Virus record (IMG/VR): IMGVR_UViG_3300010885_010158
Direction: 5' to 3' (one strand)
Length of the DNA: 64,000 nt
Source: an uncultured virus (IMG/VR IMGVR_UViG_3300010885_010158)
Lineage: Duplodnaviria > Heunggongvirae > Uroviricota > Caudoviricetes
The position numbers and the translations under genes were made by a program. Below, in pieces: positions 16,269-44,007 of this stretch. Each line of letters starts with the position of its first letter. Position 1 is the stretch's first letter. The notes below the pieces were generated by a model. The model worked only from the letters and a program-made list of their open reading frames with translations, was not told the DNA's origin and searched no databases.

Positions 16269-16750
16269 TGGAATTAATTTATAAGCTTATACCGTATGAT
16301 GATCCGCTTTTAACTAAGCGACTAGAATATAGTGAAATAGAAGATATGCCAAAATTTGCTGGTATGATGGTCAATGCATGTAAGTTTTTTAAAGGCATTG
16401 GACTTTCAGCTAATCAAGTTGGTATTGACAATAGGATTTTTTGTATTACGTTCAATGATTTTTCAGAAACTTTCTTTGATCCAAAAATTGTTGAATATTC
16501 TACAGAAGAAACTTTATTTGATGAAGGATGTCTATCTCAACCTGGAGTTTTCATTAATTTAAAACGACCTAAGACGATTAAGATAGAATACACAACTCAA
16601 GAAGGCAAACGTGTTACCACTGAATTTAGCGGCATTACAGCGCGCATAATTCAGCATGAATATGACCACATGGAAGGTACCAATTTCTTAGAACGCGCAT
16701 CTCCACTCAAACGAGCTTTGGCTTTAAAACATGCTAAACGAAAAAAATAG
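16268..16750 (+). CDS. def: Peptide deformylase
   Basis: GIGLSANQVG, EGCLS, HEYDH motifs. Confidence 0.93.
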   Translation: MELIYKLIPYDDPLLTKRLEYSEIEDMPKFAGMMVNACKFFKGIGLSANQVGIDNRIFCITFNDFSETFFDPKIVEYSTEETLFDEGCLSQPGVFINLKRPKTIKIEYTTQEGKRVTTEFSGITARIIQHEYDHMEGTNFLERASPLKRALALKHAKRKK

Positions 16751-19061: not shown

Positions 19062-19067
19062 GGCCTA

Positions 19068-19096
19068 TGTACTGCAGGATATTTTTATGGTATAAT
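19068..19096 (+). promoter_or_regulatory. Phage promoter (near-duplicate of 16762)
   Basis: TGTACT-N17-TATAAT. Confidence 0.85.
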
Positions 19097-19145
19097 ATAT
19101 CTATATTATGTAATTTTATTATGTTAAAAGTGAAAGGTGTCCAGT

Positions 19146-20294
19146 ATGAAATCAGAAATTAAACAAGCATTCGTTAAAACTTTAGGCGACAAGTTTCCAG
19201 GTCGTTCAGTGTTTGATGTACAAGAATTAGTAGACCACGCCCGTGATATGGGATTAAGTTATCCTAATTTTATCACAAAGCCAGAAAATCGAGTAGGTCG
19301 CGGTCGTTATCAAGTAGAAATGTTGGCAGCAGTATTGCCTATTAAAAAACTTGAAGCGCAAGTTGCAGATCAACCAACAGAAAAAATTACACAGAAGGTA
19401 TTCCAACAAGTGCAAATCGAAGTGCCAGAAAAAGATTCATCATATGTTACATGGGGATTTTTTCGCGACGTAAAACTAGTCGTTGAATCTAATGCATTCT
19501 ATCCTCTATTCATTTCAGGTCTGTCAGGTAATGGTAAGACTATGATGGTTGAACAAGCATGTGCTCAATCTAAACGCAAGTATGTGCGTGTAAACATTAC
19601 AGAAGAAACTGACGAAGACGATCTAATCGGTGGTTTCCGTCTAGTTAACGGTGAGACTGTATGGTGCGATGGTCCTGTACCACAAGCCATGAAACAAGGC
19701 GCGATCTGTTTGATTGACGAGATCGATCGCGGATCTAACAAACTCATGTGTTTGCAAGCCATCTTAGAAGGCAAACCACTATACATCAAGAAAACTGGCG
19801 TAGTAATTAAACCTGCAGACGGTTTTAATGTCATCGCAACGGCTAATACTAAAGGTCGTGGTTCTGAAGACGGCCGTTTTACAGGTGCTCGTATTCTCGA
19901 TGAAGCTTTCCTTGAAAGATTTGTTGCAACCCTTGAGCAGCCATATCCTTCTATTGCAGTAGAAAAGAAAATTATCTTAAATGCAATGGAAACTTATGGC
20001 AAACTTGATGGAGAATTTGCAGATAATCTAACTACATGGGCAGATATTATTCGTCAAACATATAAAGACGGTGGTGTAGATGATCTTATCTCTACTCGTC
20101 GTTTAGTGCATATTGCACGTAGTTATGGTATTTTTGCAGATCGAGCTAAAGCAATTGAATTGTGTATCTCTCGCTTTGATGAAGACACTAAAGTAGCTTT
20201 CTTAGATTTGTATACTAAAGTAGATTCTAAAGCAATAGTAGCACCGATTGCAGGAGAAACAGTTGTTGAAGATGTTCAACCTCAACAACAATAA
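19146..20294 (+). CDS. CobS/MoxR-family AAA+ ATPase
   Basis: GLSGNGKT Walker A, LIDEID Walker B, ATANTKG sensor, EAFLERF. Confidence 0.9.
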   Translation: MKSEIKQAFVKTLGDKFPGRSVFDVQELVDHARDMGLSYPNFITKPENRVGRGRYQVEMLAAVLPIKKLEAQVADQPTEKITQKVFQQVQIEVPEKDSSYVTWGFFRDVKLVVESNAFYPLFISGLSGNGKTMMVEQACAQSKRKYVRVNITEETDEDDLIGGFRLVNGETVWCDGPVPQAMKQGAICLIDEIDRGSNKLMCLQAILEGKPLYIKKTGVVIKPADGFNVIATANTKGRGSEDGRFTGARILDEAFLERFVATLEQPYPSIAVEKKIILNAMETYGKLDGEFADNLTTWADIIRQTYKDGGVDDLISTRRLVHIARSYGIFADRAKAIELCISRFDEDTKVAFLDLYTKVDSKAIVAPIAGETVVEDVQPQQQ

Positions 20295-20783: not shown

Positions 20784-21146
20784 ATGGCTAGCAAGAAAGA
20801 TTTAAAAGATATTGTGAAAGCCAGTCAAAATTCAAAGACTGGTGGACGAAAGTTTGATGGTGACAAAGCTCAATACGGCTTGTTGCCACCTTTGGCATTG
20901 AAAGCCACAGCAGAAATTCTAACATTTGGTGCACAGAAATATGAACCAGATAATTGGAAGCATGTTCCAGATTCTAAACGCAGATATTTCGATGCACTAC
21001 AACGACATGTTTGGGCATGGAAAGAAGGCGAGCAAAATGATCCAGAATCTGGAAAGAACCACCTAGCACATGCTTTATGTTGTCTCATGTTTTTATATGA
21101 ACACGACGTAAAATATAGTGTACAAAATGACAAAAATGTGGTATAA
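20784..21146 (+). CDS. dATP/dGTP diphosphohydrolase-like protein (DUF5664 type)
   Basis: GRKFDGDK, LTFGAQKY..DNW, DPESGKNHLAHA motifs. Confidence 0.8.
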   Translation: MASKKDLKDIVKASQNSKTGGRKFDGDKAQYGLLPPLALKATAEILTFGAQKYEPDNWKHVPDSKRRYFDALQRHVWAWKEGEQNDPESGKNHLAHALCCLMFLYEHDVKYSVQNDKNVV

Positions 21147-24467: not shown

Positions 24468-24998
24468 ATGAACACATTAGTAAAACAACTATTCGAAAAA
24501 CCTTTCGAAACTTTAAACGTATCTTCAAAAGACTTTGATAAGTTCTTTGTTGGTTTTGACGATCAATTCGACAAACTAGCGAAACTTCAACAAGACTTTG
24601 CAAAGAACGTTCCGAACTATCCTCCATATAACATCCGCAAAATAGCCGATAACAAATATGTTATTGAACTTGCTATTGCTGGTTTCGCGCAATCAGATGT
24701 AGAAGTTACAATCGACGGTAACAAACTTACTGTTACTGGTAAAACTACAGATGACGCAGAAACAGATTACCTATTTAAAGGTATTGCAAATCGTGCATTC
24801 ACCCGCACATTTGCTTTAGCTGATAAAATAGAAGTTGAATCTGCTGAGATGGTTAATGGTATGTTAAAAGTTGCTCTTGAAAAGTTGGCTGAAATTTCAA
24901 CTGTTAAGAAAATTGACATAAATTCTTCAGCTAAAAAATCCAAGAAAAAGTTTTTAACAGAGGATGAAGAATATGACACAGCTGCTGAAACTCTTTAA
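24468..24998 (+). CDS. Small heat shock protein (Hsp20/IbpA-like)
   Basis: NYPPYNI, IELAIAGF, KGIANRAFTRTF, NGMLKV. Confidence 0.95.
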   Translation: MNTLVKQLFEKPFETLNVSSKDFDKFFVGFDDQFDKLAKLQQDFAKNVPNYPPYNIRKIADNKYVIELAIAGFAQSDVEVTIDGNKLTVTGKTTDDAETDYLFKGIANRAFTRTFALADKIEVESAEMVNGMLKVALEKLAEISTVKKIDINSSAKKSKKKFLTEDEEYDTAAETL

Positions 24999-25732: not shown

Positions 25733-28249
25733 ATGGAATTCTACACAAACATTTCTCGCTACGGCAATCAACTTCTTTACCGCGGTTATAAAGACGGTAG
25801 ACGAATACAAACAAAAATCCCCTTCTCCCCTACGCTGTACGTACCAGTAGAAAAATCTACTGCATGGAAAGCTCTCGACGGAAAGTCAGTTGAACCTGTC
25901 CGTCTCGAAACCATGCGTGAAGCTAAAGAATTCGTCGAACGATATAAAGATGTATCGAACTTCGAGATCTATGGCAATACAAACTATATTGCTCAGTTCG
26001 TAGCAGAAAAGTTTCCTAATGAAATCAAATTCGATTCTTCATTAATCAATATCACCACTATCGATATTGAAGTTGCTTCTGACGAAGGATTTCCTGAACC
26101 TGAACAAGCTAATTATCCTATCACAGCAATTACAATTAAAAATAACATAGACAACATTTTCTATGTATTCGGTCTTGGTGATTATGATGTGTCTAAGTCA
26201 ATCATGAAAGACAATCTTGTTAAATACGAGAAGTGTCGTGACGAACATGAATTGCTAATCAAGTTCATTGCCCATTGGGGTACACCTTCTCATATGCCAG
26301 ATGTTGTAACTGGTTGGAATATTCGTAACTTCGATATTCCATATATTATCAATCGTGCAGCTCGCATTGTGCATGAAGATACTATTAAAAAGTTATCTCC
26401 ATGGGGTAGAGTCGAAGAAAAGCAAGTCACTATGCAGAAAAGACAAGTGCAGATGTATGATATCATCGGCGTAGCACAACTTGATTGGATGGATCTCTTT
26501 AAGAAATTTGGTTATACCTTCGGCCCACAAGAAACATATCGCTTAGATCATATCGCCAATGTAGTACTCGGTGAACGTAAACTAGAATACGATGGTACAT
26601 TACATTCGTTGTATATGACAGATCATCAAAAATTCATCGACTATAATATTCGAGATGTAGATCTTGTTGATCGTATGGAAGACAAAGTAGGTTTGATCGT
26701 ACTATGCTTTACGATGGCTTATAGAGCTGGTGTTAATTACAGCGACACATTCGGCACAACTGCTATTTGGGATAGTTTAATTTATCGTTATTTGTTACCA
26801 CAAAATATTGTAGTACCACCAAATAAAGAATCTATTAAAGAAGCATACGACGGTGGTTATGTTAAAGATCCACAATGCGGTGTTCACGATTGGGTTGCAT
26901 CATTCGACGTCAATTCACTTTATCCTAATATCATTGTTCAGTGGAATATGTCACCTGAAACTATCATACGAGGTCGTCATGACCATCGTGTGTCACCAGA
27001 TTCTATTCTTGAAGGATATCAACCTGAAAAGACAGAATACGGTATTGCAGGCAGCGGTCAAATGTTCTCTAATCAAAAGCAAGGTTTCATGCCTAAGATC
27101 ATCGAAGAGATGTATGACGAACGCGTGAAGATCAAAACGCTTATGCTCGATGCTAAAAAAGAATTAGAAGCATCTGATAAGACGAATAAACAAGAAATGT
27201 ATAGAATTGAACGAGACATCGCTCGATATGAAAATCAACAGACATCTATTAAGATTCTATTAAACTCTCTTTACGGTGCACTAGGCAACAAGTATTTCCG
27301 ATACTTTACTATGGAAATTGCAGAAGGCATCACATTATCTGGTCAAATGATTATTCGATGGGCAGAAAAAGCTGTAAACGAATATCTTAATAAAGCATTA
27401 AAGAATAAAAAAGAAAAAGACTATGTCATCGCTATTGATACTGATTCTGTTTATGTTAATCTTAGTGAGGTTGTTAAGGTAACTAATATAACTGACAAAA
27501 CAAAGATAACTGATTTCTTAGATAAACTATGCACTGATTCAATGGAATCTGTTTTAAGTAAATCATTCGATGAACTTGCAGATACGATGAATGCATATAA
27601 GAAGCGTCTTAGCATGAAACGAGAAGCTATCGCTGATCGTGCGATATGGACTGCTAAGAAACGATACATCTTAAACGTACTAGATAATGAAGGAGTACGC
27701 TATGCTAAACCTAAACTCAAGATCATGGGGATTGAAGCGATCAAGTCCTCGACACCGGGCACGTGTCGCACGGCTTTTGAAGAATTGTTTCAAGTGCTCA
27801 TCAGTGGTACGGAAGCTGAAACTCAGACTTTTATTCAAAATTATAGAGAGAAATTTGATCAACTTCCAGCGCACGAAAAAGCATTCCCTCGGGGAGTCTC
27901 GTCGGTTAAAGAATATCAATCGCGCGACACGCTCTACAAGAAAGGTACACCCATAAATTCACGTGCAGCCATCTTGTATAATCACATGCTGCAAAAGCAA
28001 GGATTGAAAACTTACACACCTATCAAAGGCGGTGATAAGATTAAATACATTTACTTGTATCCTCATAATCCTATGAAAGAAGATGTTATCGGCTTTGTCG
28101 ACATCTTACCTCCAGAATTTAAGCTTGATAAGTATATTGATAATGACAAACAATTCGAAAAAGCTTTTTTAGAACCAGCGAAATTGATTCTCGATGCGAT
28201 CGGTTGGAAAGCAGAAAAAATAGCATCTCTTGAAGATTTCTTTGCTTAA
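25733..28249 (+). CDS. gp43: Family B DNA polymerase
   Basis: DIEV exo I, SFDVNSLYP, KILLNSLYGALG, IDTDS, KKRY. Confidence 0.98.
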   Translation: MEFYTNISRYGNQLLYRGYKDGRRIQTKIPFSPTLYVPVEKSTAWKALDGKSVEPVRLETMREAKEFVERYKDVSNFEIYGNTNYIAQFVAEKFPNEIKFDSSLINITTIDIEVASDEGFPEPEQANYPITAITIKNNIDNIFYVFGLGDYDVSKSIMKDNLVKYEKCRDEHELLIKFIAHWGTPSHMPDVVTGWNIRNFDIPYIINRAARIVHEDTIKKLSPWGRVEEKQVTMQKRQVQMYDIIGVAQLDWMDLFKKFGYTFGPQETYRLDHIANVVLGERKLEYDGTLHSLYMTDHQKFIDYNIRDVDLVDRMEDKVGLIVLCFTMAYRAGVNYSDTFGTTAIWDSLIYRYLLPQNIVVPPNKESIKEAYDGGYVKDPQCGVHDWVASFDVNSLYPNIIVQWNMSPETIIRGRHDHRVSPDSILEGYQPEKTEYGIAGSGQMFSNQKQGFMPKIIEEMYDERVKIKTLMLDAKKELEASDKTNKQEMYRIERDIARYENQQTSIKILLNSLYGALGNKYFRYFTMEIAEGITLSGQMIIRWAEKAVNEYLNKALKNKKEKDYVIAIDTDSVYVNLSEVVKVTNITDKTKITDFLDKLCTDSMESVLSKSFDELADTMNAYKKRLSMKREAIADRAIWTAKKRYILNVLDNEGVRYAKPKLKIMGIEAIKSSTPGTCRTAFEELFQVLISGTEAETQTFIQNYREKFDQLPAHEKAFPRGVSSVKEYQSRDTLYKKGTPINSRAAILYNHMLQKQGLKTYTPIKGGDKIKYIYLYPHNPMKEDVIGFVDILPPEFKLDKYIDNDKQFEKAFLEPAKLILDAIGWKAEKIASLEDFFA

Positions 28250-28300: not shown

Positions 28301-28702
28301 ATGAGTAGAGATTGGGTACAAGATATACAGGAAATGCATACTAAATATGGTGTGCGAGAAGTCGTTAGAAACTTTGATGCACCTAAGTTAGACACATATC
28401 TAACATTCAGAGCAAATTTTTTACAAGAAGAATTAGATGAACTGAAAACATCTAAGAATGCAGATGATGCTGTTGATGCTTTGATCGATCTTTGTGTTGT
28501 AGCAATTGGAACATTAGATGCATTTGGTGTAGATTCATATACTGCATGGGATCGCGTTCATAGAGCAAACATGAATAAAGAAGTTGGTATTAAAGAATCT
28601 CGACCAAACCCATTAGGATTGCCAGATCTTATCAAGCCAGAAGGTTGGACAGCACCAAGCCATGCTGACAATACTGCATTGCTTGAAAAGATCTATGACT
28701 AA
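28301..28702 (+). CDS. MazG-like all-alpha NTP pyrophosphohydrolase (candidate dCTPase/dUTPase)
   Basis: LQEELDEL, DALIDL, VHRANMNK, DLIKPEGW.AP motifs. Confidence 0.8.
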   Translation: MSRDWVQDIQEMHTKYGVREVVRNFDAPKLDTYLTFRANFLQEELDELKTSKNADDAVDALIDLCVVAIGTLDAFGVDSYTAWDRVHRANMNKEVGIKESRPNPLGLPDLIKPEGWTAPSHADNTALLEKIYD

Positions 28703-28704
28703 AT

Positions 28705-29697
28705 ATGAATTATTCTTTGACAGCGTTTTCGTCTATATTTGATAATAAGACGCATCGCCAAATACATCATGAAACGTGGGAAGAGTTCGAAGCCATGCTA
28801 TATAAAATGGCTGAGACTCCAGGTTATAAATTAAAACGTGGAGAACGCAAAGCACCGAAAGGTCTTAAAGCTTCTCCATTAATTTCTCCTGCTATATTTC
28901 CAGAAGGAAAAACCCGAGCTAACGATAATGTTATTGAATGGGCAGGATGGGCAGCATTAGATATTGATGATCATCAATTCCAAGGAAATTTAAAAGATGA
29001 ATTACATACTCTTTATGGCAATTATTATTATGTGTGTTACTCTACCTCTAGTAGTACTATCGATCATCCGAAGTTTCGCCTTGTATTCCCACTTAAATCT
29101 AGTGTGCGGAAAGAATTCATTAAGCATTTCTGGTTCTCACTCAATAGAGAGTTCAACAATCTCGGAGATGAACAGACTAAAGACTTATCGAGGATGTATT
29201 ATGTCCCTGCTGTTTATCCAGGGGCTAATAACTTTATCTTTACTAATGTTAGTGATAGTTTTATTGATCCAATTGTTTTGATGGATAAACATCCATACAT
29301 TGTGCAACAATCTGGTATTGCAACATTTATGGATAGATTACCACCAGAAGTACAGAAGAAAGTTATTAATCATCGTGAAGAGTTATTAAAAAATCAAGCA
29401 AATTATGATTTTGAATGGACATCATATAGAGATTGCCCATTCGTTAATAAAAAAATGGTTAACGATTATAGTGCTATATCTAATACAGATGGATCAGGTC
29501 GCTATGCAATGATTTACAAGATCATGACATCAATAGCATGTAATGCAATCAAACGCAAGTATCCAATAACATCTAGTCAAATCGCAGAGCTAATTAGGCA
29601 GCTTGATAAAGATACATCTCGTCGTTATCAAAAACGACCATTGCAGACTGAAGCAGAGCGAGCTTTAGAATATGCGTATAGGACCGCTGAAATCTAG
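28705..29697 (+). CDS. AEP/primase-polymerase-like protein
   Basis: RANDNV, ALDIDD, YST...PKFRLVFPL, KDLSRMYYVP. Confidence 0.65.
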   Translation: MNYSLTAFSSIFDNKTHRQIHHETWEEFEAMLYKMAETPGYKLKRGERKAPKGLKASPLISPAIFPEGKTRANDNVIEWAGWAALDIDDHQFQGNLKDELHTLYGNYYYVCYSTSSSTIDHPKFRLVFPLKSSVRKEFIKHFWFSLNREFNNLGDEQTKDLSRMYYVPAVYPGANNFIFTNVSDSFIDPIVLMDKHPYIVQQSGIATFMDRLPPEVQKKVINHREELLKNQANYDFEWTSYRDCPFVNKKMVNDYSAISNTDGSGRYAMIYKIMTSIACNAIKRKYPITSSQIAELIRQLDKDTSRRYQKRPLQTEAERALEYAYRTAEI

Positions 29698-29726
29698 TGT
29701 ACAGCGAGTTATTTTTATGGTATAAT
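29698..29726 (+). promoter_or_regulatory. Phage promoter for base-modification operon
   Basis: TGTACA-N17-TATAAT. Confidence 0.85.
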
Positions 29727-29752
29727 ATACCTATCAACGTTAAGGAAATTAC

Positions 29753-30136
29753 ATGCAAAAATCATACTCAAGACCATCAGCAAATATCCTGCTAGAAGCT
29801 GCAGAAATTCAAGAAAGAAAAGGTCAAGATTATAATAATGCAGCTAGTCGAGTTGAACAAGCTGACTATTATCCACGCGGTGTAGTTTCTATTCTTGATA
29901 TCATTCATGCCAAATATCTTCGTATGGTTTCAGTCCTTGAAACTATGGAAGCTGGTGGTAACGTTAACTACGAATCAGTCGAAGACTCAGCTCTTGACAT
30001 GATTAACTATGCATCATTTGTAGTTGCTTATATGCGCGGTGAAGTACCTGGTCAAAAACCCGATCGTGATATATTCAACAAACCAAATCCAGAAAATCAA
30101 GCACTTATTCCAACAAAATTCAGAGGTACTAAGTAA
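29753..30136 (+). CDS. Nucleotide-modification-associated domain 1 (Nmad1/DUF1599-like) protein
   Basis: RKGQDY, KYLRM, ESVEDSALDMINYA pattern; adjacent to hydroxymethylase. Confidence 0.65.
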   Translation: MQKSYSRPSANILLEAAEIQERKGQDYNNAASRVEQADYYPRGVVSILDIIHAKYLRMVSVLETMEAGGNVNYESVEDSALDMINYASFVVAYMRGEVPGQKPDRDIFNKPNPENQALIPTKFRGTK

Positions 30137-30840
30137 TGTATGTTATTCCAACAGTTTATGATATCCGTCATCAACTTATTAATGAGTTACACGATCAAAA
30201 TTTTGTAACTGATAAATCTGGTGTTAAGACCATCGAAATAATAAATGCTTCTTTTCTTGCTGACGAAGAAGCAATATTCGGCACACCAAACCAAGATTAT
30301 ATTGAACGTGAACTTAAATGGTATCGTTCAATGTCACGTAACGTTAATGATATTCCTAATGGTCCTCCAGAAATATGGAAAATGGTTGCAGATAAGAATG
30401 GTATGATCAACTCAAATTATGGTTGGTGCATTTATTCAGAAGAAAACGGTTATCAATTTGCTAAAGTTGTAAAAGAACTTGTAGAAACTCCGTTATCTCG
30501 TCGTGCAACCATGATTTATACTAGACCAAGTATGCATGAAGATTATAATAAAAATGGTATGTCTGATTTTATGTGTACTAATGTTGTACAATATTTTATT
30601 CGTAAAGGTAAACTCCACGCGTCAGTCTATATGAGATCTAATGATGCTGTCTTCGGTTATAAAAATGATTATGCATGGCAAAAATATGTTCAACAACAAG
30701 TCCTTGAGGCAATCAATGGCAAGCTTTCTACTGTATATGGTATTGGTGATCTTTTCTGGAACGTCAGCTCTCTTCATGTCTATGAGCGGCATTTTAAACT
30801 AGTAGAAGATGAGGACGGAGAATATGGATCAAACACATAA
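30136..30840 (+). CDS. gp42: dCMP hydroxymethylase (thymidylate-synthase fold)
   Basis: Matches recalled T4 gp42 along length: DKSGVKTIEI, INSNYGW, SRRATMIYTRPSM, GMSDFMCTN (catalytic Cys), RSNDAVFGYKNDYAWQ (dCMP-specifying Asp), SLHVY. Confidence 0.9.
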   Translation: MYVIPTVYDIRHQLINELHDQNFVTDKSGVKTIEIINASFLADEEAIFGTPNQDYIERELKWYRSMSRNVNDIPNGPPEIWKMVADKNGMINSNYGWCIYSEENGYQFAKVVKELVETPLSRRATMIYTRPSMHEDYNKNGMSDFMCTNVVQYFIRKGKLHASVYMRSNDAVFGYKNDYAWQKYVQQQVLEAINGKLSTVYGIGDLFWNVSSLHVYERHFKLVEDEDGEYGSNT

Positions 30841-31273
30841 ATGGGATTTACGATATTTAGATCTAGCTAAACATGTTGCGCAATGGTCGAAAGATCCTAA
30901 CACTAAAGTTGGTGCTGTAGCAGTTGGACATATGGGTCAAATATTGGCTCAAGGATATAATGGATTTCCTCGAGGTATCTTAGATACTCCTGATCGTTTA
31001 AACGATAGACCAACTAAATACAAATTTGTAGTTCATGCAGAGATGAACGTAATCTATAATGCAACATATAATGGAGTGTCATTGAATGGTGCTAGATTAT
31101 ATGTTTACGGTTTACCAGTTTGCAGTGAGTGTGCAAAAGGTATCATACAAGTTGGTATACAAGAAATAATTATTTCTCAAGAATGTTTGAATCTTCAACC
31201 ACATTGGGTTGAAAGCTGGAAAATATCTGCAGATATGTTCGCTGAAGCTTGCATCCTCGTAAAAGTAATATGA
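30824..31273 (+). CDS. cd: dCMP deaminase
   Basis: SKDPNTKVGA, GYNGFP, HAEMN, PVCSECAK zinc motifs. Confidence 0.92.
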   Translation: MDQTHKWDLRYLDLAKHVAQWSKDPNTKVGAVAVGHMGQILAQGYNGFPRGILDTPDRLNDRPTKYKFVVHAEMNVIYNATYNGVSLNGARLYVYGLPVCSECAKGIIQVGIQEIIISQECLNLQPHWVESWKISADMFAEACILVKVI

Positions 31274-32439
31274 ATATAGAAACCACTAAATACTATGACG
31301 AATATATTCGTTATTACAATCTAGCATTAGACCAACAAAATAAGTGTAATGTATCTGATACTGCACCTTATGGTATGTTGTCACATGCTGAATCCGATAT
31401 GAACGATGAGTTGTTACATCACGTAGAATTATATGATGTAGTAGAACGTAAATATGCTGGCTTCTCTCAAATTGTAAATGATGCATTCTACGGTTGGACA
31501 AAAGAACATCCGTATTGGAAAAAAATGGAAGCTGGTAAAATCACACGGCAACGCGAAGCAGTTGCAAAAGATTGGACTGGTAAACACTCTGATTTTAAAT
31601 TACCAGAATGGTTGTATATTTTCATTCTTCATCGTGTTTGTGGTTCAGCTATTAACTATTCTACTAAACCATCTGGTTATCATAATACGTTACTATTCAA
31701 TTTGCATAAGGCAAAAACAATTGAAGAAATGACTATGATCGTTAATAAACATCCTAAACCATTTTATACATCAGTAGGTTATCAATTTCCAGCATTTCCA
31801 AAACCACCTGCAGGTTCAAATTATAAACGTGGCGGTGATTACTATCTAATAGAATTTGCACCACGTTTAGCTCGTGATCTTGCAGAATTTTTAGAAAAAG
31901 GCGGTAAGCGAGATCTTCGAGAGATTGGTTCATTCATGCTAGAATGGAATGTTACTAATGGTTTACGTCAATACCATTTTCAATATGCAGCAGTCATTGC
32001 AGATATCGCAGATTGGTATCCGCAATATGTGAATAAAGAAACGCCGTTTTATTATGGAACAAATGCAGTTGAATGTATCTCATACTTAGGTCGACCAACA
32101 TCTAAGATGAAACAAGATCAATTTTTAGATCAAGTTATGATGAAGATCTATGAAGATACTGGCGCATATCCATATAATGCAGAAGATGTATGTTGTGACT
32201 TTATCCGTTGGGTTGAAAACTATGTTCGACCAGGTGCAGATTACGATCACTTAGATTATGATAATGTATGGTCTTCATGTAAGATTAAAGATCATCCATT
32301 TGGTAGACAACAAAATATGTTGAAATTGGGATTAGTCAAATCATTTAATGGTATGAAAGCACATCCTTCAGATGATACAATTATTAAACAAGCGGGTTTG
32401 ACAGTGGAACAATATAAAGAATTATGCAAAACGATTTAG
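31270..32439 (+). CDS. Putative HhH-fold DNA base-modifying enzyme (aGPT-Pplase/5-hmU kinase-like), paralogue 1
   Basis: DELL...YDVVER, FQY...AD...GTNA, AEDVCCDFIRW pattern; operon context. Confidence 0.55.
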   Translation: MNIETTKYYDEYIRYYNLALDQQNKCNVSDTAPYGMLSHAESDMNDELLHHVELYDVVERKYAGFSQIVNDAFYGWTKEHPYWKKMEAGKITRQREAVAKDWTGKHSDFKLPEWLYIFILHRVCGSAINYSTKPSGYHNTLLFNLHKAKTIEEMTMIVNKHPKPFYTSVGYQFPAFPKPPAGSNYKRGGDYYLIEFAPRLARDLAEFLEKGGKRDLREIGSFMLEWNVTNGLRQYHFQYAAVIADIADWYPQYVNKETPFYYGTNAVECISYLGRPTSKMKQDQFLDQVMMKIYEDTGAYPYNAEDVCCDFIRWVENYVRPGADYDHLDYDNVWSSCKIKDHPFGRQQNMLKLGLVKSFNGMKAHPSDDTIIKQAGLTVEQYKELCKTI

Positions 32440-33407
32440 CAAAATTCATCGATGAACCATATAATAATATTACATATGAAGATACAAGTGATGTAGTATT
32501 AAAGAATGGCAAACCAACAGATAGTTGGATGAAAGATTGGACACAAGAAGAACGATTTGACAAGTTCTTTGAGTGGTGTCAAGCATTCGATAAACGTGAA
32601 GATAAACTATTGAAAGAAGACTATCAGATTTTCTCTCACCGATTGCATTGGCATGAACATCCATTTGTAGATGTTATGCAATCAATCACTGATAATAAGT
32701 TACGCTTATTCTATACACTTGTGTTCTCATTTAGTAATGAACATTGGGGTACACTCACATCATTGATGAATGATGGTATCATCTTAACGCGTGAACGCTT
32801 TAAAACACAACGTCATGCACGAAACGATCTATTCCAAATCTATTATCCTAAAGGTACGAACGTAAAAGATTGGTTGATAGATGGTCCAATGAAAGCTGCA
32901 GAAGATATTCATACTATCTTAGATGAACCTAAAAAGATGGGTCGTCCATTTACGATGATGGAATTTGCTAAACGTTTAGAAGCATACTTCAAAGAACATC
33001 AAGGATTTAGAAGTCCATTGTATCCATGCAAGAACACTGCACGTTATATGGCATTTGCTTATCCTCATTTAGTAGATCCAGAATCTGTATTGTTTGGTGG
33101 TACAGGTCACTTCGATGGCATGCAACAAATCTTCGGTGGTCCAAATTTAAATGGCAAAGTTAAGTATGAGATTGGCCCGAATGGAGAGTTTACAGCAACA
33201 AATAAGTATGGTATAATGTGGCTAGAACAGATGAATACATTAGCTAACGATTCTCGCAATCCAATGACAGTACAAAAGATGTTAAATGTAGAAGATAAAA
33301 CTTGTTTCTTTTATAAACATATTGCTATTAGTCATGGAGTTAAATCACCAACCAAACGTATTCCATATACATGGATTTTCCCACAGGAATTTAGCTTAAA
33401 AAAATGA
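32424..33407 (+). CDS. Putative HhH-fold DNA base-modifying enzyme, paralogue 2
   Basis: DKLL..DYQIFSHR, VDPES..GGTG..GM, NVEDKTCFFYK pattern parallels previous gene. Confidence 0.5.
   Translation: MQNDLAKFIDEPYNNITYEDTSDVVLKNGKPTDSWMKDWTQEERFDKFFEWCQAFDKREDKLLKEDYQIFSHRLHWHEHPFVDVMQSITDNKLRLFYTLVFSFSNEHWGTLTSLMNDGIILTRERFKTQRHARNDLFQIYYPKGTNVKDWLIDGPMKAAEDIHTILDEPKKMGRPFTMMEFAKRLEAYFKEHQGFRSPLYPCKNTARYMAFAYPHLVDPESVLFGGTGHFDGMQQIFGGPNLNGKVKYEIGPNGEFTATNKYGIMWLEQMNTLANDSRNPMTVQKMLNVEDKTCFFYKHIAISHGVKSPTKRIPYTWIFPQEFSLKK
33189..33217 (+). promoter_or_regulatory. Internal phage promoter upstream of SGNH and PLP genes
   Basis: TTTACA-N17-TATAAT with TGG extension, inside a CDS. Confidence 0.65.
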
Positions 33408-34387
33408 ATGTCTTAACAAACCCAATTAGTAATGTACCTCAACTAAAGAACTCTCATGTCCTTGGTTGGTCACAAATATGGGCAAATCAATTAGATGCTG
33501 CTATCGATCATAAGTGTTCTCCAAATATTGTTAATGCTTCAATCGTTTATATTGAGCACGGTGTAAACTTCGGTGGTACACTAAACTTATTTGGTGGCGC
33601 AACTAAAGAGATCTATGATAGAATCAATAGAGTTGCAGCACATCCTAATGTAGTATCATTAGACTTCGATATGCCAGATTGGGGAGACCAACTTAAGAAA
33701 CGAATTGGTGCACCGACTACATACATAGGTATCACTGAACAATGGTGTGATGCATTATCTTTACGCTTATCAAAAGTACAATCTGTTAAACAACAAGACT
33801 TATTGCAAGTATCATCTAAGTTCGATGGTATTTCTGTGGGAGATTCTCATACACCAGCATTCTCCCGTTCCACTGATATTGTACTAAGAGAAAATGGTAA
33901 GACATTATATGGTACTCTTAAACGCGGATTGATCACAGAGTTTAGAGGCTTGAAACCATTTGGCAATGTAACATTTTGTTATGGATCAATAGATATTCGC
34001 CATCATATACTTCGTCATGAGAACTTTAACTTAGACGACATGTTAGATGAGTATGTTAGACAAGCTGTTACTATACAAAAAGAACATGGATGCGATATCT
34101 CATTCACAACTCCAGTTCCAGTTGAATACGAAGATCGTAGATTACCAAAGACTGGTTATTTTAAAGGTACTCCATTCTTTGGATCAAGGCAAGATCGTTT
34201 AGACTTTACATACCGAATTATAGAAGGACTAAATAAAAGAAAGGTGAATGTTATTATGCCACCTGAAGAATGGTATAAGATGGATGGTGAGAAGTATGCA
34301 AAGACTTATATGGAAAATAGTTCGAGCGTTCATATTTCACCACAATATTATAGACGAAACGATTGGGGTCAAACTTGTTTAGCATAA
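33404..34387 (+). CDS. SGNH/GDSL-like hydrolase or acyltransferase domain protein
   Basis: VGDSH block I, YGSIDIRHH block III-like, C-terminal SVH. Confidence 0.55.
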   Translation: MNVLTNPISNVPQLKNSHVLGWSQIWANQLDAAIDHKCSPNIVNASIVYIEHGVNFGGTLNLFGGATKEIYDRINRVAAHPNVVSLDFDMPDWGDQLKKRIGAPTTYIGITEQWCDALSLRLSKVQSVKQQDLLQVSSKFDGISVGDSHTPAFSRSTDIVLRENGKTLYGTLKRGLITEFRGLKPFGNVTFCYGSIDIRHHILRHENFNLDDMLDEYVRQAVTIQKEHGCDISFTTPVPVEYEDRRLPKTGYFKGTPFFGSRQDRLDFTYRIIEGLNKRKVNVIMPPEEWYKMDGEKYAKTYMENSSSVHISPQYYRRNDWGQTCLA

Positions 34388-35337
34388 CAGAAGATACAGG
34401 TAATAAAGATATCCCGATGGGAATGGATCGCAGCGATGCGAAAAAATATTATGAAGAATTGTGGGGATCATATGATTCTAAAATATCAGATCCAGTAATA
34501 GAATCATATGGAGATAAATTTATACTAAGAGCTGATTTAGCACCAGGCGGATTGAAAGCTTTCGGTGGTGAAAGAGTTATAGCAGAATCAAAGTATGATA
34601 CATTTACATATTGTGCACCTCGGCAAGGTCATGCTATGGATGCTATTTCAATGTTAGCAGAGATGTATAATAAAAAAGTAGTATTCTTTTGTCCGTCATC
34701 TAAAGAAGTATCAGATCATCAAGGTGCATTATTCTCGTATCCTCACGTTGATATGCGATTCGTTCGTATTGCTGCAATGCCAGTTTTAAATCAATATGCA
34801 AAGAAATGGGCAAAAGAAAATAATGCGCAGTATCTTCCACTAGGTTTAAAAGATATGCCAATGGTTACAGCAGGACTTGTGAACATGGCAAATAAGATAA
34901 CTAAACAATTAGGTAAAGAACCTACACAAATTTGGTGTGCAGTTTCAACAGGAACTATGACACGTGCATTGCAAATTGGATGGCCGACAGCAGAAGCACA
35001 TGGTATTGCAGTGGCACGTAATATACATAAAGGTGAAATCGGTGATGCGAAAGTTGTAACAGCAACTATACCTTTCCTTAAAGCATGCATTACAAAAAAT
35101 ACTATGCCATTCCCCTCGACAGCAGCATATGATGCAAAAGCATGGGACGCTTTTGTTGAGCACGGAAAACCAGGATCTATTTTTATTAATGTTGGTGCTG
35201 ATGAACATATCAATAGAAACTTGTCAAAAGTAGATATATCTAATATCAATAGTTACAGAGAATGGCATGATATGGAAGATTTAAAACGCAATAGAGCATT
35301 TAAAAACAGTGTACAAACTAGTGAAAATGTGGTATAA
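34363..35337 (+). CDS. PLP-dependent enzyme, fold type II (Trp synthase beta/ACC deaminase-like)
   Basis: LRADL..GGLK (Schiff-base Lys), WCAVSTGTM phosphate loop, YDAKAW, FINVG; true start may be TTG 34375. Confidence 0.75.
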   Translation: MGSNLFSITEDTGNKDIPMGMDRSDAKKYYEELWGSYDSKISDPVIESYGDKFILRADLAPGGLKAFGGERVIAESKYDTFTYCAPRQGHAMDAISMLAEMYNKKVVFFCPSSKEVSDHQGALFSYPHVDMRFVRIAAMPVLNQYAKKWAKENNAQYLPLGLKDMPMVTAGLVNMANKITKQLGKEPTQIWCAVSTGTMTRALQIGWPTAEAHGIAVARNIHKGEIGDAKVVTATIPFLKACITKNTMPFPSTAAYDAKAWDAFVEHGKPGSIFINVGADEHINRNLSKVDISNINSYREWHDMEDLKRNRAFKNSVQTSENVV

Positions 35338-35369: not shown

Positions 35370-36440
35370 ATGGGCTTAATGAGCAAACTACAGAAGAATT
35401 CAAAAATCGAATTCACTTCTCCGCTCGAAGACTCGAAATTCTTCGGCGATAAAGATATGATTACAACACCAGTTCCAATGGTGAATGTAGCGCTAAGCGG
35501 TAAACTTGATGGTGGTTTGACACCAGGATTGACAGTACTTGCTGGTCCGTCCAAACATTTCAAAACTGCTTTTAGTTTACTTATGGCTAAAGCATACATG
35601 GACAAATATAAAGATTCAGTATTGTTATTTTATGATTCTGAATTTGGTACTCCTCAAGGATATTTCGATTCTTTTGCTATTGATAAATCTCGAGTACTTC
35701 ATACTCCTATCACTGATGTAGAACAATTAAAATTTGACTTAGTATCACAGCTCAATAATCTTGATCGTGGTGAAAAAGTCATTGTAATTATCGACTCAAT
35801 TGGTAATTTGGCATCTAAGAAAGAAATGGAAGATGCATTGAACGAAAAATCTGTGGCAGATATGTCACGTGCTAAAGCACTTAAAGGTTTGTTCCGTATG
35901 ATTACTCCATATCTAACAATGAAAGATGTGCCATTGCTTGCTGTGAATCACACGTATATGGAAATCGGTATGTTCCCTAAAGCAGTAGTTTCTGGTGGAA
36001 CAGGAATCTATTATTCAGCTGATACAATTTGGATTTTAGGTCGTCAACAAGATAAAGAAGGTACAGAGATTAAAGGTTACCACTTTATTATTAATGTGGA
36101 GAAAAGTCGTTATGTTAGAGAAAAGTCTAAGATACCTTTATCTGTTAGCTATGAAGGTGGAATTCAGCGTTATTCTGGTTTGCTTGACGTTGCTTTGGCT
36201 GGCGGTTTCGTCGGTAAACCTTCTAACGGGTGGTATCAAAAAGTGGACAGAAACACTGGTGAGTTCTTGGATCCAAAGGTACGAGAGAAAGAAACGCTAT
36301 GCGAAGAATTCTGGGCACCACTATTAAAAGATCCAGCATTTCAAAAATATATTACAGACACATATCAAATGGGCACTGGTAAGATGTATCAAACAACAGA
36401 ACCAGATCATGCAGAAGAGTTAACTGATGAAGATATCTAA
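35370..36440 (+). CDS. uvsX: RecA-like recombinase
   Basis: AGPSKHFKT, FYDSEFG, DSIGNLASKKE, DMSRAK. Confidence 0.97.
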   Translation: MGLMSKLQKNSKIEFTSPLEDSKFFGDKDMITTPVPMVNVALSGKLDGGLTPGLTVLAGPSKHFKTAFSLLMAKAYMDKYKDSVLLFYDSEFGTPQGYFDSFAIDKSRVLHTPITDVEQLKFDLVSQLNNLDRGEKVIVIIDSIGNLASKKEMEDALNEKSVADMSRAKALKGLFRMITPYLTMKDVPLLAVNHTYMEIGMFPKAVVSGGTGIYYSADTIWILGRQQDKEGTEIKGYHFIINVEKSRYVREKSKIPLSVSYEGGIQRYSGLLDVALAGGFVGKPSNGWYQKVDRNTGEFLDPKVREKETLCEEFWAPLLKDPAFQKYITDTYQMGTGKMYQTTEPDHAEELTDEDI

Positions 36441-38336: not shown

Positions 38337-38500
38337 TGTATAAAGTAACTTATTATATAAACGGTTCGACAGTACAATTCAAATGGTTTAAAACTTTTCA
38401 CGAAGCTACGGATTATTGTATTAATAAAATACCAACCGGAGAAGTACTAGAGATTAAAAAATATGATGACCCGGAGAAATTTCACTATCATGGAGATTAA
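38336..38500 (+). CDS. Small hypothetical protein (54 aa)
   Basis: TAATG overlap; MYKVTYYINGSTVQFKWF...; not in ORF track. Confidence 0.55.
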   Translation: MYKVTYYINGSTVQFKWFKTFHEATDYCINKIPTGEVLEIKKYDDPEKFHYHGD

Positions 38501-39176
38501 ACTTGTTTCCTATTCACAACCAACCGAATCATATAGATCTATGGGTATCGAAGATGCGCAGGAACTCATTGCGTATTGTGCCCGTGTCTCCAATCCAACC
38601 AACCAACTTAACACCGAATCATCAGCAAAACTCATCTCATACCTCATCAAACACCAGCACTGGTCACCACTCGAAATGGTCTCAGCATGCATGGAAATCA
38701 CCACAACAAGAGATATCGCAAGACAAATGTTGCGACACAGAAGTTTTAGCTTCCAAGAATTCAGTCAACGATATGCTGATCCTACTAAAGACTTGTCGTT
38801 TGTACTTAGAGAAGCACGAAAGCAAGATCCCACTAATAGACAAAACAGTGTAAAGCTAAGTGGCCTCACACTTACTGAACAAAACTTGATCGAACAATGG
38901 AAGTGGAAACAAGAAGAAGTTATATCTGCTGCTGAACATGCATATGATTGGGCAATTAATAATGGTATTGCTAAAGAACAAGCACGCGCAGTATTGCCAG
39001 AAGGTTTGACCGTAAGTAGATTGTATATGAATGGCACATTAAGATCTTGGGTGCACTTTATTGAGTTACGTAGTGGACATGGCACTCAACAGGAGCACAT
39101 GGAAGTAGCTCGAGGATGCGCTCAGGTCATCTCAAAAATTTTCCCCTTGATGGATACATTGGTACAGAAAGATTGA
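38490..39176 (+). CDS. thyX: Flavin-dependent thymidylate synthase
   Basis: HWSPLE, RHRSFSFQEFSQRY ThyX motif, AKEQARAVLP. Confidence 0.96.
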   Translation: MEIKLVSYSQPTESYRSMGIEDAQELIAYCARVSNPTNQLNTESSAKLISYLIKHQHWSPLEMVSACMEITTTRDIARQMLRHRSFSFQEFSQRYADPTKDLSFVLREARKQDPTNRQNSVKLSGLTLTEQNLIEQWKWKQEEVISAAEHAYDWAINNGIAKEQARAVLPEGLTVSRLYMNGTLRSWVHFIELRSGHGTQQEHMEVARGCAQVISKIFPLMDTLVQKD

Positions 39177-41871: not shown

Positions 41872-42251
41872 TAACTTTCAAAGAATACTTACAAGAAGAA
41901 CACGGCGCAGGAGAATGGGGAACAACCAAACTTACTAAGCGTTATAAGAAAGATACTCCTGGCCAAGATGATAAAGAAGACATCAAAGAATATGCTGTTG
42001 ATGCTAAAGGACATAAGTCGTCTACTGGTGGATTAACACAAAAAGGTGTTGATGCTTATAAGAGAGAAAATCCAGGTAGTAAACTTCAAACAGCTGTAAC
42101 TACTAAACCTTCCAAATTAAAACCAGGAAGTAAAGCTGCTAATCGTCGTAAATCATTTTGTGCTCGTATGAGCGGCGTTGATGGTCCTATGAAAGACGAA
42201 AAGGGTAGACCAACTAGAAAAGCTTTGGCTTTAAGAAAGTGGAATTGCTAA
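41868..42251 (+). CDS. Putative internal head protein (basic; RRKSFCARM motif)
   Basis: N-terminus MITFKEYLQEE resembles T4 capsid-targeting sequence. Confidence 0.7.
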   Translation: MITFKEYLQEEHGAGEWGTTKLTKRYKKDTPGQDDKEDIKEYAVDAKGHKSSTGGLTQKGVDAYKRENPGSKLQTAVTTKPSKLKPGSKAANRRKSFCARMSGVDGPMKDEKGRPTRKALALRKWNC

Positions 42252-43387
42252 TGATTACTTTTAAAGATTTCTTGTTTGAGGCTACATCAGTAGATGATGA
42301 GATGCTTGGTCATCTAACACATACTAAAGATTTACCTCATGAAGATTCACGATATGGCAATGCAGCTATAGATCTAATACACCAGTTTCATAAGCTTCGT
42401 AAAGGCGAGAAGAGCGAAGTGTCTGCTTCATTGAAAACCGATGGCGGTTCATCTGTGCATGTAGTACACGATGCCAAGGGTGTGGGTGTATCAGATAAAC
42501 ATAGAATTGCAAGAGGAGTTATCGCAAGAACTCCTGAAGAAGTAGATCAACATTTTGGGCATCAACCACAATATGCGCATGCATTAAAACATCTATTGAA
42601 ACACGGTCATGAGATCGTAAGTAAAGGACATCATATTCAAGGTGATTTGTTACATACACCAAAAGATGAAACTACCAAACAAAGTAAAGATACTACTACA
42701 ACAACTCCAAATAGAATCACTTATAAAGCAAAGACAAAAGCTCCTATTGGATTGGCTATACATACTGAAATAACTAAAGGCGTTGCTCATGCACCGTCTA
42801 AAGGTGCTGTGAAGAAAAGTAGTAATGTGTTTGTCCCAACATATACGTTTAATCATAAAGAACATCCATATACAGCTGAAGATCAAGCACACGTAGAACA
42901 TCATTTGACTGCTGCTAAAAAATTAATGGATGATCATTCTACACATCACTTAACACCTGATCATACTAGCCATTTTACAATATACTTAAATAGAACTACG
43001 CGAAGAGGAGAAGCACCTTCAATTGCTGGATATAAAAAGCATTTGGCTGGTGAAGGAGAAAAAGCAGCTGGTAAATTAAAGACAGCAGTTGGTAAAGAAA
43101 AAGTTATGTCAAAATTTAATACATTATCTAATCACGTTGATACTCATAAAGAACATTTCCAACGTTCATTAGATATTCGCCATCATTTAGGTCAAGCAAC
43201 TGAGCATGCATTGAAGGGTATAAATCATCCTGATATGGAAACATCTATTGATAATAAGAAATCTCCTGGTGAAGGTATAGTATTACAGAAAAAACACAAT
43301 GGAAAATTAAGACCAGTTTCGAAACTTGTTCCAGTCAAAGTTTCTAATGCTATCTTAAACAATCCAAGATTCGCTAAGGAAAAATAA
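42251..43387 (+). CDS. His-rich ligase/nucleotidyltransferase-like protein with capsid-targeting-like N-terminus
   Basis: MITFKDFLFEA; LKTDGG, QGDLL, GEGIVL, KLV motifs. Confidence 0.6.
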   Translation: MITFKDFLFEATSVDDEMLGHLTHTKDLPHEDSRYGNAAIDLIHQFHKLRKGEKSEVSASLKTDGGSSVHVVHDAKGVGVSDKHRIARGVIARTPEEVDQHFGHQPQYAHALKHLLKHGHEIVSKGHHIQGDLLHTPKDETTKQSKDTTTTTPNRITYKAKTKAPIGLAIHTEITKGVAHAPSKGAVKKSSNVFVPTYTFNHKEHPYTAEDQAHVEHHLTAAKKLMDDHSTHHLTPDHTSHFTIYLNRTTRRGEAPSIAGYKKHLAGEGEKAAGKLKTAVGKEKVMSKFNTLSNHVDTHKEHFQRSLDIRHHLGQATEHALKGINHPDMETSIDNKKSPGEGIVLQKKHNGKLRPVSKLVPVKVSNAILNNPRFAKEK

Positions 43388-44007
43388 TGCAAACGTTTTC
43401 AAACTTCCTTAAGGAAGAAACAGAAGCTAAACACGCAACTCTCGCATATGGTCGCATGAATCCTCCAACATCTGGTCATCTTAAAGTAATTAATAAAGTG
43501 CAAGAAGTTGCTAAGAAACATGGAGGTGAGCATCACATGATCGTATCACATTCTCAAGATTCTAAAAAGAATCCACTATCTGGTGAACAGAAGGTTAAAC
43601 ACCTTAAACGTTATGCACCTGGCGCAAACATCCGTTCATCATCAAAAGAAAATCCTACACTGTTCTCACACGCTGCTGAGCTACATAAGAAAGGTGTAAC
43701 GCATTTACACGTTGTTGCTGGTTCAGATCGTGTATCAGAATATAAAAAGAAGTTTAAAGAATTGAACGGTAAACCAAACAAAGACGGTCATGTGCCATTC
43801 CATTTTAAAAAGATCACAGTTCATTCTGCTGGTACAAGAGATCCAGATGCTGAAGGTGATACAGGAGTGTCAGGTACAAAGATGCGTGGTCATGCTGCGG
43901 GTAACGACTTTAAGTCATTCCGCAAAGGTGTTCCAAGCCATGTATCAGATGAACATGCACACGAATTAATGCATGATGTACGTAAGGGTATGGGCCATAA
44001 CGATTAA
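43387..44007 (+). CDS. HIGH-family nucleotidyltransferase (cytidyltransferase/NMNAT-like), His-rich
   Basis: MQTFSNFLKEE; YGRMNPPTSGH, KNPL, VAGSDR, SGTKMR. Confidence 0.85.
   Translation: MQTFSNFLKEETEAKHATLAYGRMNPPTSGHLKVINKVQEVAKKHGGEHHMIVSHSQDSKKNPLSGEQKVKHLKRYAPGANIRSSSKENPTLFSHAAELHKKGVTHLHVVAGSDRVSEYKKKFKELNGKPNKDGHVPFHFKKITVHSAGTRDPDAEGDTGVSGTKMRGHAAGNDFKSFRKGVPSHVSDEHAHELMHDVRKGMGHND

Follow-up and report, generated by a model that had tools for sequence, protein, structure and literature searches.

Which base does a T4-like phage put into its DNA when, between its polymerase and recombinase genes, a dCMP hydroxymethylase gene is followed by genes without counterpart in T4? The question is raised by an uncultured T4-like phage, IMG/VR record IMGVR_UViG_3300010885_010158, of which we analysed a 64,000-nt genome part (about 35% G+C; hereafter the window). 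Between gp43 and uvsX (positions 28301..35337) it carries nine packed open reading frames (ORFs) on the + strand, called A to I below, at the places where a preliminary description of the sequence had put them. On balance, we favour reading the region as a cassette for non-sugar hypermodification of 5-hydroxymethylcytosine (5hmC), probably with an amino acid-derived group, and the phage DNA probably contains a cytosine decoration not described so far. The coupling of an amino-acid hypermodification machinery of the type that acts on 5-hydroxymethyluracil (hmU) to a genuine dCMP hydroxymethylase, which the preliminary description had proposed, holds as a prediction from sequences and structural models; the DNA kinase that it had placed at the first step does not.

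The gp43–uvsX slot and its hydroxymethylase

In T4, the gene order at the same place is 43-imm-42-beta-gt-segA-uvsX-40-41, and the cassette therefore fills the slot of gene 42 and of the β-glucosyltransferase gene. The nine ORFs are tightly packed: the junctions from C through H are overlaps of 1 to 32 nt, and the remaining ones are short gaps (A/B 2 nt, B/C 55 nt, H/I 29 nt assuming that I starts at 34417, and I/uvsX 32 nt). The DNA of the region found no match among GenBank phages.

Residues 6-224 of D align to residues 7-226 of T4 gp42 (PDB entry 1b49), and D keeps FMCTN, with the Cys, and NDYAW, with the Asp, which bears out its description as a dCMP hydroxymethylase with the catalytic Cys and the dCMP-specifying Asp of gp42. 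We took the diagnostic positions of thymidylate synthase (TS) homologues from PMC13326640. According to the accessible text of that paper, some phage TS homologues make 5-hydroxy-dCMP and not 5-hydroxymethyl-dCMP (5hm-dCMP), and Asn at ThyA position 169 marks them; Cys146 is catalytic, Asp at N177 goes with dCMP specificity, and an acidic residue is found at L143. The signature of D is that of T4 (L143D, Cys146, Asp169 and N177D in Escherichia coli ThyA numbering), so the expected base is 5hmC rather than 5-hydroxycytosine (5hoC) or hmU, and D would make 5hm-dCMP. The same D-C-D-D signature stands beside the cassette in 76/76 related loci with a TS homologue that covers the motifs.

Two further genes would serve the nucleotide pool. 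A, described from the outset as MazG-like, scores 35 bits against PF01503, above the cut-off of 21.3 bits, and by analogy with T4 gp56 it would remove dCTP, perhaps also dUTP. E is a dCMP deaminase, as had been proposed, and its gene lies directly downstream of D, with the longest of the overlaps (32 nt). This last arrangement suggests another target: E could deaminate 5hm-dCMP to 5hm-dUMP, so that the modified base would be hmU, reached by an unusual route and processed by an ordinary thymidine-type pathway. The characterised relatives of the downstream proteins, PUGT and M6 gp52, indeed all act on uracil-derived bases. We nevertheless consider hmU a distinctly improbable target. T4 also combines gene 42 with a dCMP deaminase, yet makes hmC; dTMP has its own source here, the separate ThyX reported earlier, which we recovered; no dUMP-type hydroxymethylase (Asn177) was found, this position being Asp in all 76 loci; and the DNA kinase for 5-hydroxymethyldeoxyuridine (5-hmdU) of thymidine-type pathways was found in none of five relatives (see below). 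Moreover, a TS homologue, a PRA-PH protein and a dCMP deaminase form the typical trio of the modified-cytosine contigs of the MetaGPA study, as far as the available portion of PMC8670742 describes them.

Proteins I, F and G

The strongest single link to amino-acid-type chemistry is the homology of I to M6 gp52. The two proteins belong to the same PHROG (phrog_7093; 2.2e-159 for gp52), and hhalign aligns the I family to gp52 over 215 columns (probability 95.2%, E 2.9e-8). In the alignment the Lys of GGLKAFG in I, invariant in 40/40 sequences, falls on K36 of gp52 (SFSKIRG), which PMC8989533 names, in the text available, as the Lys that binds pyridoxal phosphate (PLP). The same portion of that paper describes M6 gp52 as a PLP enzyme that decarboxylates Cα-glycinyl-thymine in DNA, and ViI gp226 as doing the same for O-seryl-thymine. 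By these alignments I is a homologue of M6 gp52, and it may well decarboxylate an amino-acid:base adduct on DNA. Its earlier assignment to the fold-type II PLP enzymes agrees with a weak Pfam PALP signal, a cysteine synthase match (E 0.0076) and the PHROG match of Table 1. An I-type PLP domain also forms the C-terminal part of ‘DNA modification methylase’ proteins of Erythrobacter phage vB_EliS_R6L (gp1) and Microcystis phage Mae-JY30 (5995-6705); in Mae-JY30 it adjoins two ParB/sulfiredoxin genes, which hints at another DNA hypermodification system with the same PLP module.

F and G belong to no Pfam or PHROG family, had no tblastn match among GenBank phages, and their family profiles gave 0 matches at E <= 10 among PDB sequences. 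Their AlphaFold2 models, built from alignments of 46 (F) and 40 (G) sequences, are confident and mostly helical (pLDDT 89.5 and 90.2, respectively). Foldseek alone gave weak matches: the best for G was 8z2n (E 0.23, prob 0.87), and the top matches of F were archaeal and other helix–hairpin–helix (HhH) DNA glycosylases. An unbiased VIA-align search through 48,161 chains ranked the PaMx11 gp46/PUGT crystal structure first for both proteins. Judged by these models, F and G share the two-helix-bundle fold of PUGT.

A sequence pattern accompanies the fold. PUGT (E243), PaMx11 gp50 (the HMUDK_hel protein; E265), F (E305) and G (E290) each contain the motif E-x3-C-x-[FW] a single time. In PUGT, by the part of PMC11472151 available, Glu243 and Thr244 are metal ligands and Cys247 is the proposed C6 nucleophile; the three lie on a C-terminal helix. 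The motif reads E305-D306-x-x-C309 in F and E290-D291-x-x-C294 in G, and its Glu, Asp and Cys are invariant in 46/46 and 40/40 family sequences, respectively, which argues that both proteins are catalytic.

The two had been described as related helical proteins. Compared directly, they show no kinship (nothing by BLASTP, and an hhalign probability of 1.9%), and hhalign of either against single fused proteins was uninformative. The profile hidden Markov models (HMMs) of both nevertheless match one and the same stretch of P0358 (3.7e-34 for F and 1.8e-11 for G) and one and the same stretch of P0271 (8.5e-58 and 6.1e-6); F and G are therefore mutually related through these intermediates, in addition to being helical and having the same best structural match.

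Protein H, the missing kinase and the distribution of the cassette

H is a two-part protein (Table 1). Over 128 sequences its invariant core consists of GDSH, D197, R199, H201, R245, R265, E304 and H310, GDSH being kept in 128/128. The blocks of SGNH enzymes we take to be GDS with the nucleophile Ser (block I), G-x-N-D (block III) and D-x-x-H (block V). H has a near-invariant G194-[N/S]-I-D197 that is out of register with GxND, and it has no DxxH. The Atlas lead for H is GDSL (0.93); Lipase_GDSL is matched in 2/45 H members, below threshold (best E 0.0033, 18 bits against a cut-off of 23.6 bits). The earlier designation of H as an SGNH protein is thus tentative. The H profile had 0 matches at E <= 10 among PDB sequences.

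The function that we propose for H comes from its fusions. Five proteins combine H with an F-like domain (1e-65 to 4e-34) that keeps ED..CCD. A 795-aa Aeromonas phage protein (44RR2.8t ORF233c) combines H with a C-terminal domain that matches HMUDK_hel weakly (0.0036) and carries the same E-x3-C-C-x-F motif. A further protein, the metagenomic P0264 (981 aa), joins an FkbM-type methyltransferase, HMUDK_hel (PF18723, 4.5e-11) and H; this triple fusion points to additional variants of the pathway. The partner of the helical PF18723 in hmU phages is a P-loop kinase, and H stands in that position here: it would act on the 5-CH2OH group instead of a DNA kinase. The pairing of H with F, for its part, is suggested by the fusion proteins.

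The 795-aa fusion is encoded in 40 Aeromonas T4-like phage records and adjoins a sodium:solute symporter gene (44RR2.8t, NC_005135, L001 5995-8382). Beside gp43, 44RR2.8t also has a gp42 homologue (L178 1495-2190) with the full 5hm-dCMP signature, so gene 42 is not lacking from Aeromonas phages as a group. Since the cultured Aeromonas phages 44RR2.8t, 31 and 25 carry both gp42 and the H–F fusion, with no G or I match, the first step of the pathway can be tested at the bench now.

A kinase was the first step of the preliminary scheme, and its background had the DNA kinase of hmU phages as an HhH-fold protein. This is wrong: PaMx11 gp49, the kinase, is a P-loop protein, and gp50 belongs to the separate helical family PF18723. 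The P-loop 5-hmdU DNA kinase (PF18748) was found in 0/5 near-complete relatives at E <= 1 (79-99% complete, three of them at 99%), and none was seen in the family scans of the window; phosphorylation by a DNA kinase as the first step is not supported. Each of the five relatives has exactly one TS-family gene, of the gp42 type (5/5). The nearest record, G001, is only 43 kb long, and absences there weigh little.

Glycosyltransferases had been reported as absent, and no Pfam glycosyltransferase family was indeed found among the 76 ORFs of the window, nor any of the three that we tested in G007, the closest complete relative. What qualifies this statement is the N-terminus of H, which faintly resembles the N-domain of T4 β-glucosyltransferase (BGT). 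The T4 BGT model PF09198 is matched below threshold by 16/45 H members (best 18.5 bits, E 0.0017, against a cut-off of 27 bits), always within the N-terminal ~20-115 residues; the window's own H has no such match. In hhalign, H aligns to T4 BGT over 68 columns (E 1.9e-4, probability 47.8%), with NLFGG on NFFGG, and a wider H profile does so over 42 columns (E 2.2e-4, probability 45%).

H might then be a very divergent BGT-derived DNA transferase of sugar or of another group, and the final base 5hmC decorated with a sugar or an ester; the part of F and G would be to help in DNA binding or base flipping, or to tailor the donor, and I would make or trim the donor and not a DNA adduct. The position of H in the T4 beta-gt slot fits such a role, as do the Aeromonas phages, in which a homologue of H accompanies gp42 in the absence of G- or I-like genes. 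On the other hand, all PF09198 matches stay under the cut-off, and similarity to the UDP-glucose domain was not detected in H, where the invariant core is GDSH, D197, R199, H201, E304 and H310. The column aligned to Asp100, which we take to be the catalytic residue of BGT, is not conserved among the 128 H sequences (Pro 49, Asp only 22, Glu 20, Lys 12). Outside H, the clear homology of I to a decarboxylase of DNA adducts and the invariant PUGT-type E-x3-C of F and G, which argues for catalysis, speak against mere helpers. We judge this sugar or ester alternative unlikely.

The genes might also not form one pathway but share no more than the hyperplastic gp43–uvsX region; H would then be an esterase, I would be a PLP enzyme of metabolism, and F and G, as relatives of DNA glycosylases, would act in repair or anti-defence. 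DNA glycosylases come next after PUGT among the structural matches of F and G, and this slot is variable among T4-like phages. We consider such a chance assembly very improbable. F, G, H and I occur together in most of 150 IMG/VR loci, with a gp42-type gene immediately upstream in every T4-like locus whose flank extends that far, and they stay together in three gene orders, including lineages whose polymerase is only 27-29% identical. H–F fusion proteins exist, and the closest characterised relative of I is a DNA-modification enzyme. Relatives are encoded on 119 (F) and 148 (G) IMG/VR stretches; F makes up 937 clusters at 90% identity (E <= 1e-3), and H 704 representative clusters at 50% identity. 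The cassette genes are common in aquatic viromes, and the predicted base would therefore be abundant in nature.

Several results weigh against an amino-acid-type cassette for 5hmC. The Pfam families ADDT (PF18724) and HMUDK_hel (PF18723) are matched by 0/46 F and 0/40 G members at E <= 10, whereas PaMx11 gp46 itself scores 1.6e-27 against PF18724. Neither F nor G is significantly similar in hhalign to PaMx11 gp46 or gp50, nor to a 57-sequence HMUDK_hel profile (E 0.22 and 0.3), though the alignment of G with gp50 spans 187-239 columns with the motifs matching. By sequence statistics F and G lie outside both families, and the equivalence of their motif to E243/C247 of PUGT would follow from the sequence pattern and the position on the helix only. 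The fold comparison that had been suggested for these proteins, then named by their starts at 31270 and 32424, thus turned out positive by structure and not significant by profile. The faint likeness of H to BGT means that it may transfer a sugar. Glycos_transf_1 is encoded elsewhere in the genome, far from the cassette, in 4/5 more distant relatives (G008-G011), and one has Glycos_transf_2. Finally, the co-occurrence with gp42 that had been put forward as a check was confirmed for T4-like lineages; in the lineage with the order H-F-G-I, whose polymerase is among the distant ones (27-29% identity), 5 contigs yielded no gp42-type gene (four without TS and one with a canonical ThyA; 26-65% complete). 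The proposal of hmU-type chemistry on 5hmC keeps the signature of D, the structural match of F and G to PUGT and the homology of I to M6 gp52, and it loses the membership of F and G in the Pfam families of the known enzymes.

Table 1. Features of the gp43–uvsX interval and its surroundings (window positions).
Feature	Position	Strand	Evidence and remarks
gp43 DNA polymerase, left flank	25733..28249	+	838-aa ORF; named by synteny (in related loci, its translation retrieves the neighbour at the corresponding position)
A, MazG/PRA-PH-type nucleotide pyrophosphohydrolase	28301..28702	+	Pfam PRA-PH 1.9e-8; phrog_671 ‘nucleotide pyrophosphohydrolase’ 3.1e-19
B, primase N-terminus-like protein	28705..29697	+	phrog_9765 ‘DNA primase’ 9.6e-87, profile positions 17-270 of 939
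C, Nmad1/DUF1599-like small helical protein	29753..30136	+	DUF1599 E 0.0013, 19.5 bits, under the 25-bit cut-off; phrog_1485 1.3e-18
D, T4 gp42-type dCMP hydroxymethylase (predicted 5hm-dCMP synthase)	30136..30840	+	PDB entry 1b49, E 4.6e-80
E, dCMP deaminase	30809..31273	+	dCMP_cyt_deam_1 7.7e-19; phrog_174 2e-40
F, helical protein, predicted PUGT/HhH-glycosylase fold, putative partner domain of H	31270..32439	+	ORF opens with TTG 31249; likely start ATG 31270
G, second helical protein, predicted PUGT fold, candidate amino acid (or amine):DNA transferase	32424..33407	+	
H, putative two-part α/β enzyme	33404..34387	+	phrog_13881 1.2e-121; residues ~20-115 BGT N-domain-like, ~145-320 GDSH/SGNH-like
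I, M6 gp52-type fold-II PLP enzyme	34363..35337	+	likely start ATG 34417; phrog_7093 5.8e-66
UvsX recombinase, right flank	35370..36440	+	356-aa ORF; named by synteny (its translation likewise retrieves the neighbour at the corresponding position of related loci)
ThyX, separate dTMP supply	38463..39176	+	Pfam Thy1 8.6e-43; 3 kb downstream of the cassette

B and C are of less weight. B had been called AEP-like (archaeo-eukaryotic primase); its PHROG match supports this, while no Pfam family, the primase families included, and no PDB sequence matched it. Apart from the closest relatives, B occurs only in one other group of loci, and it is absent from most related loci; it is not a core part of the cassette. 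The likeness of C to Nmad1 is weak, its DUF1599 match being sub-threshold (Table 1). C also matches phrog_18404, and A and C align to adjoining parts of this one profile.

In the family scan, the window further encodes the terminase, sheath, portal, gp23, UvsY, UvsW, the clamp and clamp loader, RegA, a gp41-type helicase, ribonucleotide reductase and RNase H. A 120-aa ORF between a helix–turn–helix gene and gp45 (20784-21146) matches dATP/dGTP diphosphohydrolase (PF18909, 1e-34) in its N-terminal domain only. A 742-aa ORF without family is followed by an AAA_5/CbbQ-type ATPase (8e-21) at 16833-20294, as a MoxR/CobS-like pair; a cytidylyltransferase-like protein (1.3e-6) comes after DUF6267 (1.6e-22) at 42239-44007; and a peptide deformylase (1.8e-35) and Hsp20 (7.4e-18) are found at 16268-16750 and 24468-24998, respectively. 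Among the relatives, the H-F-G-I lineage has a DUF6378 gene (3.5e-11) directly upstream of H (L143 5290-5586) and a split family-B polymerase downstream. L097 (3770-5758 and 13253-13738), which carries F-G-H-I, has a large terminase with an intein-like insert; an HD protein and an AAA_33 P-loop kinase (1.7e-16) are encoded 2-3 kb downstream of I.

Proposed pathway and comparison with known systems

Before replication, the scheme that we propose would be T4-like: A would remove dCTP, D would make 5hm-dCMP, and E together with ThyX would supply dTMP, so that the DNA would be built with 5hmC (the enzymes are assigned by homology and their roles are predicted). After replication, H and F would bind 5hmC in its flipped state and equip its CH2OH with a leaving group (acyl, phosphoryl or glycosyl), as the counterpart of the P-loop kinase and helical domain of hmU phages. 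In the second step G, and possibly F, would attack C6 with its cysteine and expel the leaving group, so that the exocyclic methylene receives an amino acid or amine, and in the third I would decarboxylate the adduct. The expected product, a cytosine that bears a small amine as its side chain, should protect the DNA from restriction and Cas nucleases.

A more specific version can be put forward only tentatively, and we would not yet stake the case on it: a widely spread group of aquatic T4-like phages would have exchanged glucosylation of 5hmC for a kinase-free chemistry, in which H (a BGT-derived base-flipping domain with a Ser/His esterase-type domain) and F activate CH2OH, for instance as an ester, the PUGT-like, Cys-dependent G, perhaps with F, exchanges the leaving group for an amino acid, and the gp52-like I decarboxylates the adduct, to give an amine-bearing cytosine such as an aminoethoxymethyl- or aminoethyl-type dC.

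How does this compare with what is known? The thymidine hypermodification pathways of M6, PaMx11, ViI and PhiW-14 use a dUMP hydroxymethylase, a P-loop 5-hmdU DNA kinase with the helical PF18723, an amino acid:DNA transferase (PF18724, aGPT-Pplase2), and a PLP decarboxylase or other tailoring enzymes. The cassette shares with them a hydroxymethyl-pyrimidine made as a nucleotide, a pair of helical E-x3-C proteins in the PUGT fold class, a PLP enzyme homologous to M6 gp52, and a catalytic domain fused or adjacent to a helical domain, although here this domain is H and not a P-loop kinase. It differs in that its hydroxymethylase is of the cytosine type, in that the BGT-N/GDSH hybrid H stands where no P-loop kinase was found, and in that F and G are so distant that neither HMM nor hhalign links them to PF18723 or PF18724. 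Radical-SAM, FAD or acetyltransferase partners were not seen in the family scans of the window.

With the glucosylation of hmC in T4 (gene 42, gp56, gp1 and the α- and β-glucosyltransferases), it has in common the gp43–uvsX slot, a gp42 orthologue that shares the active-site signature, a dCMP deaminase, and a pyrophosphatase that likely excludes dC. Unlike T4, it has no recognisable glucosyltransferase, H being at most faintly similar to the BGT N-domain and not conserving the presumed Asp100 position, and F, G and I are without T4 counterpart.

Cytosine-based systems offer two further comparisons, each limited to the portion of the source available. The contigs with a 5hmC carbamoyltransferase, which yields 5-carbamoyloxymethylcytosine (MetaGPA, PMC8670742), likewise place a TS homologue, a PRA-PH protein and a dCMP deaminase beside a non-glycosyl 5hmC enzyme; there it is a TobZ-like carbamoyltransferase, a domain not found in the window. 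In the arabinosylation of 5hoC by RB69 and DLP3 (PMC13326640), a TS homologue in the same Straboviridae region also feeds a post-replicative hypermodification; those synthases carry D169N and make 5hoC, whereas D keeps Asp169, and the arabinose genes and glycosyltransferases are missing here.

In the main texts that we consulted, supplements aside and PMC13229309 included, we found no description of this pathway, of AADT/aGPT-Pplase enzymes linked to 5hmC, or of phage DNA with 5hmC derivatised by an amine or amino acid. If the proposed pathway is true, it matters for the escape from restriction and CRISPR and for the bias of sequencing in viromics, and it would offer enzymes with which 5hmC can be derivatised. 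The amino-acid-type DNA hypermodifications in the work cited here are all made on thymine or uracil, and the decorations of cytosine are sugars, on 5hmC or 5hoC, and carbamoyl; beside these, the cassette would add both a new natural cytosine base and a new, kinase-free activation of the 5-hydroxymethyl group on DNA.

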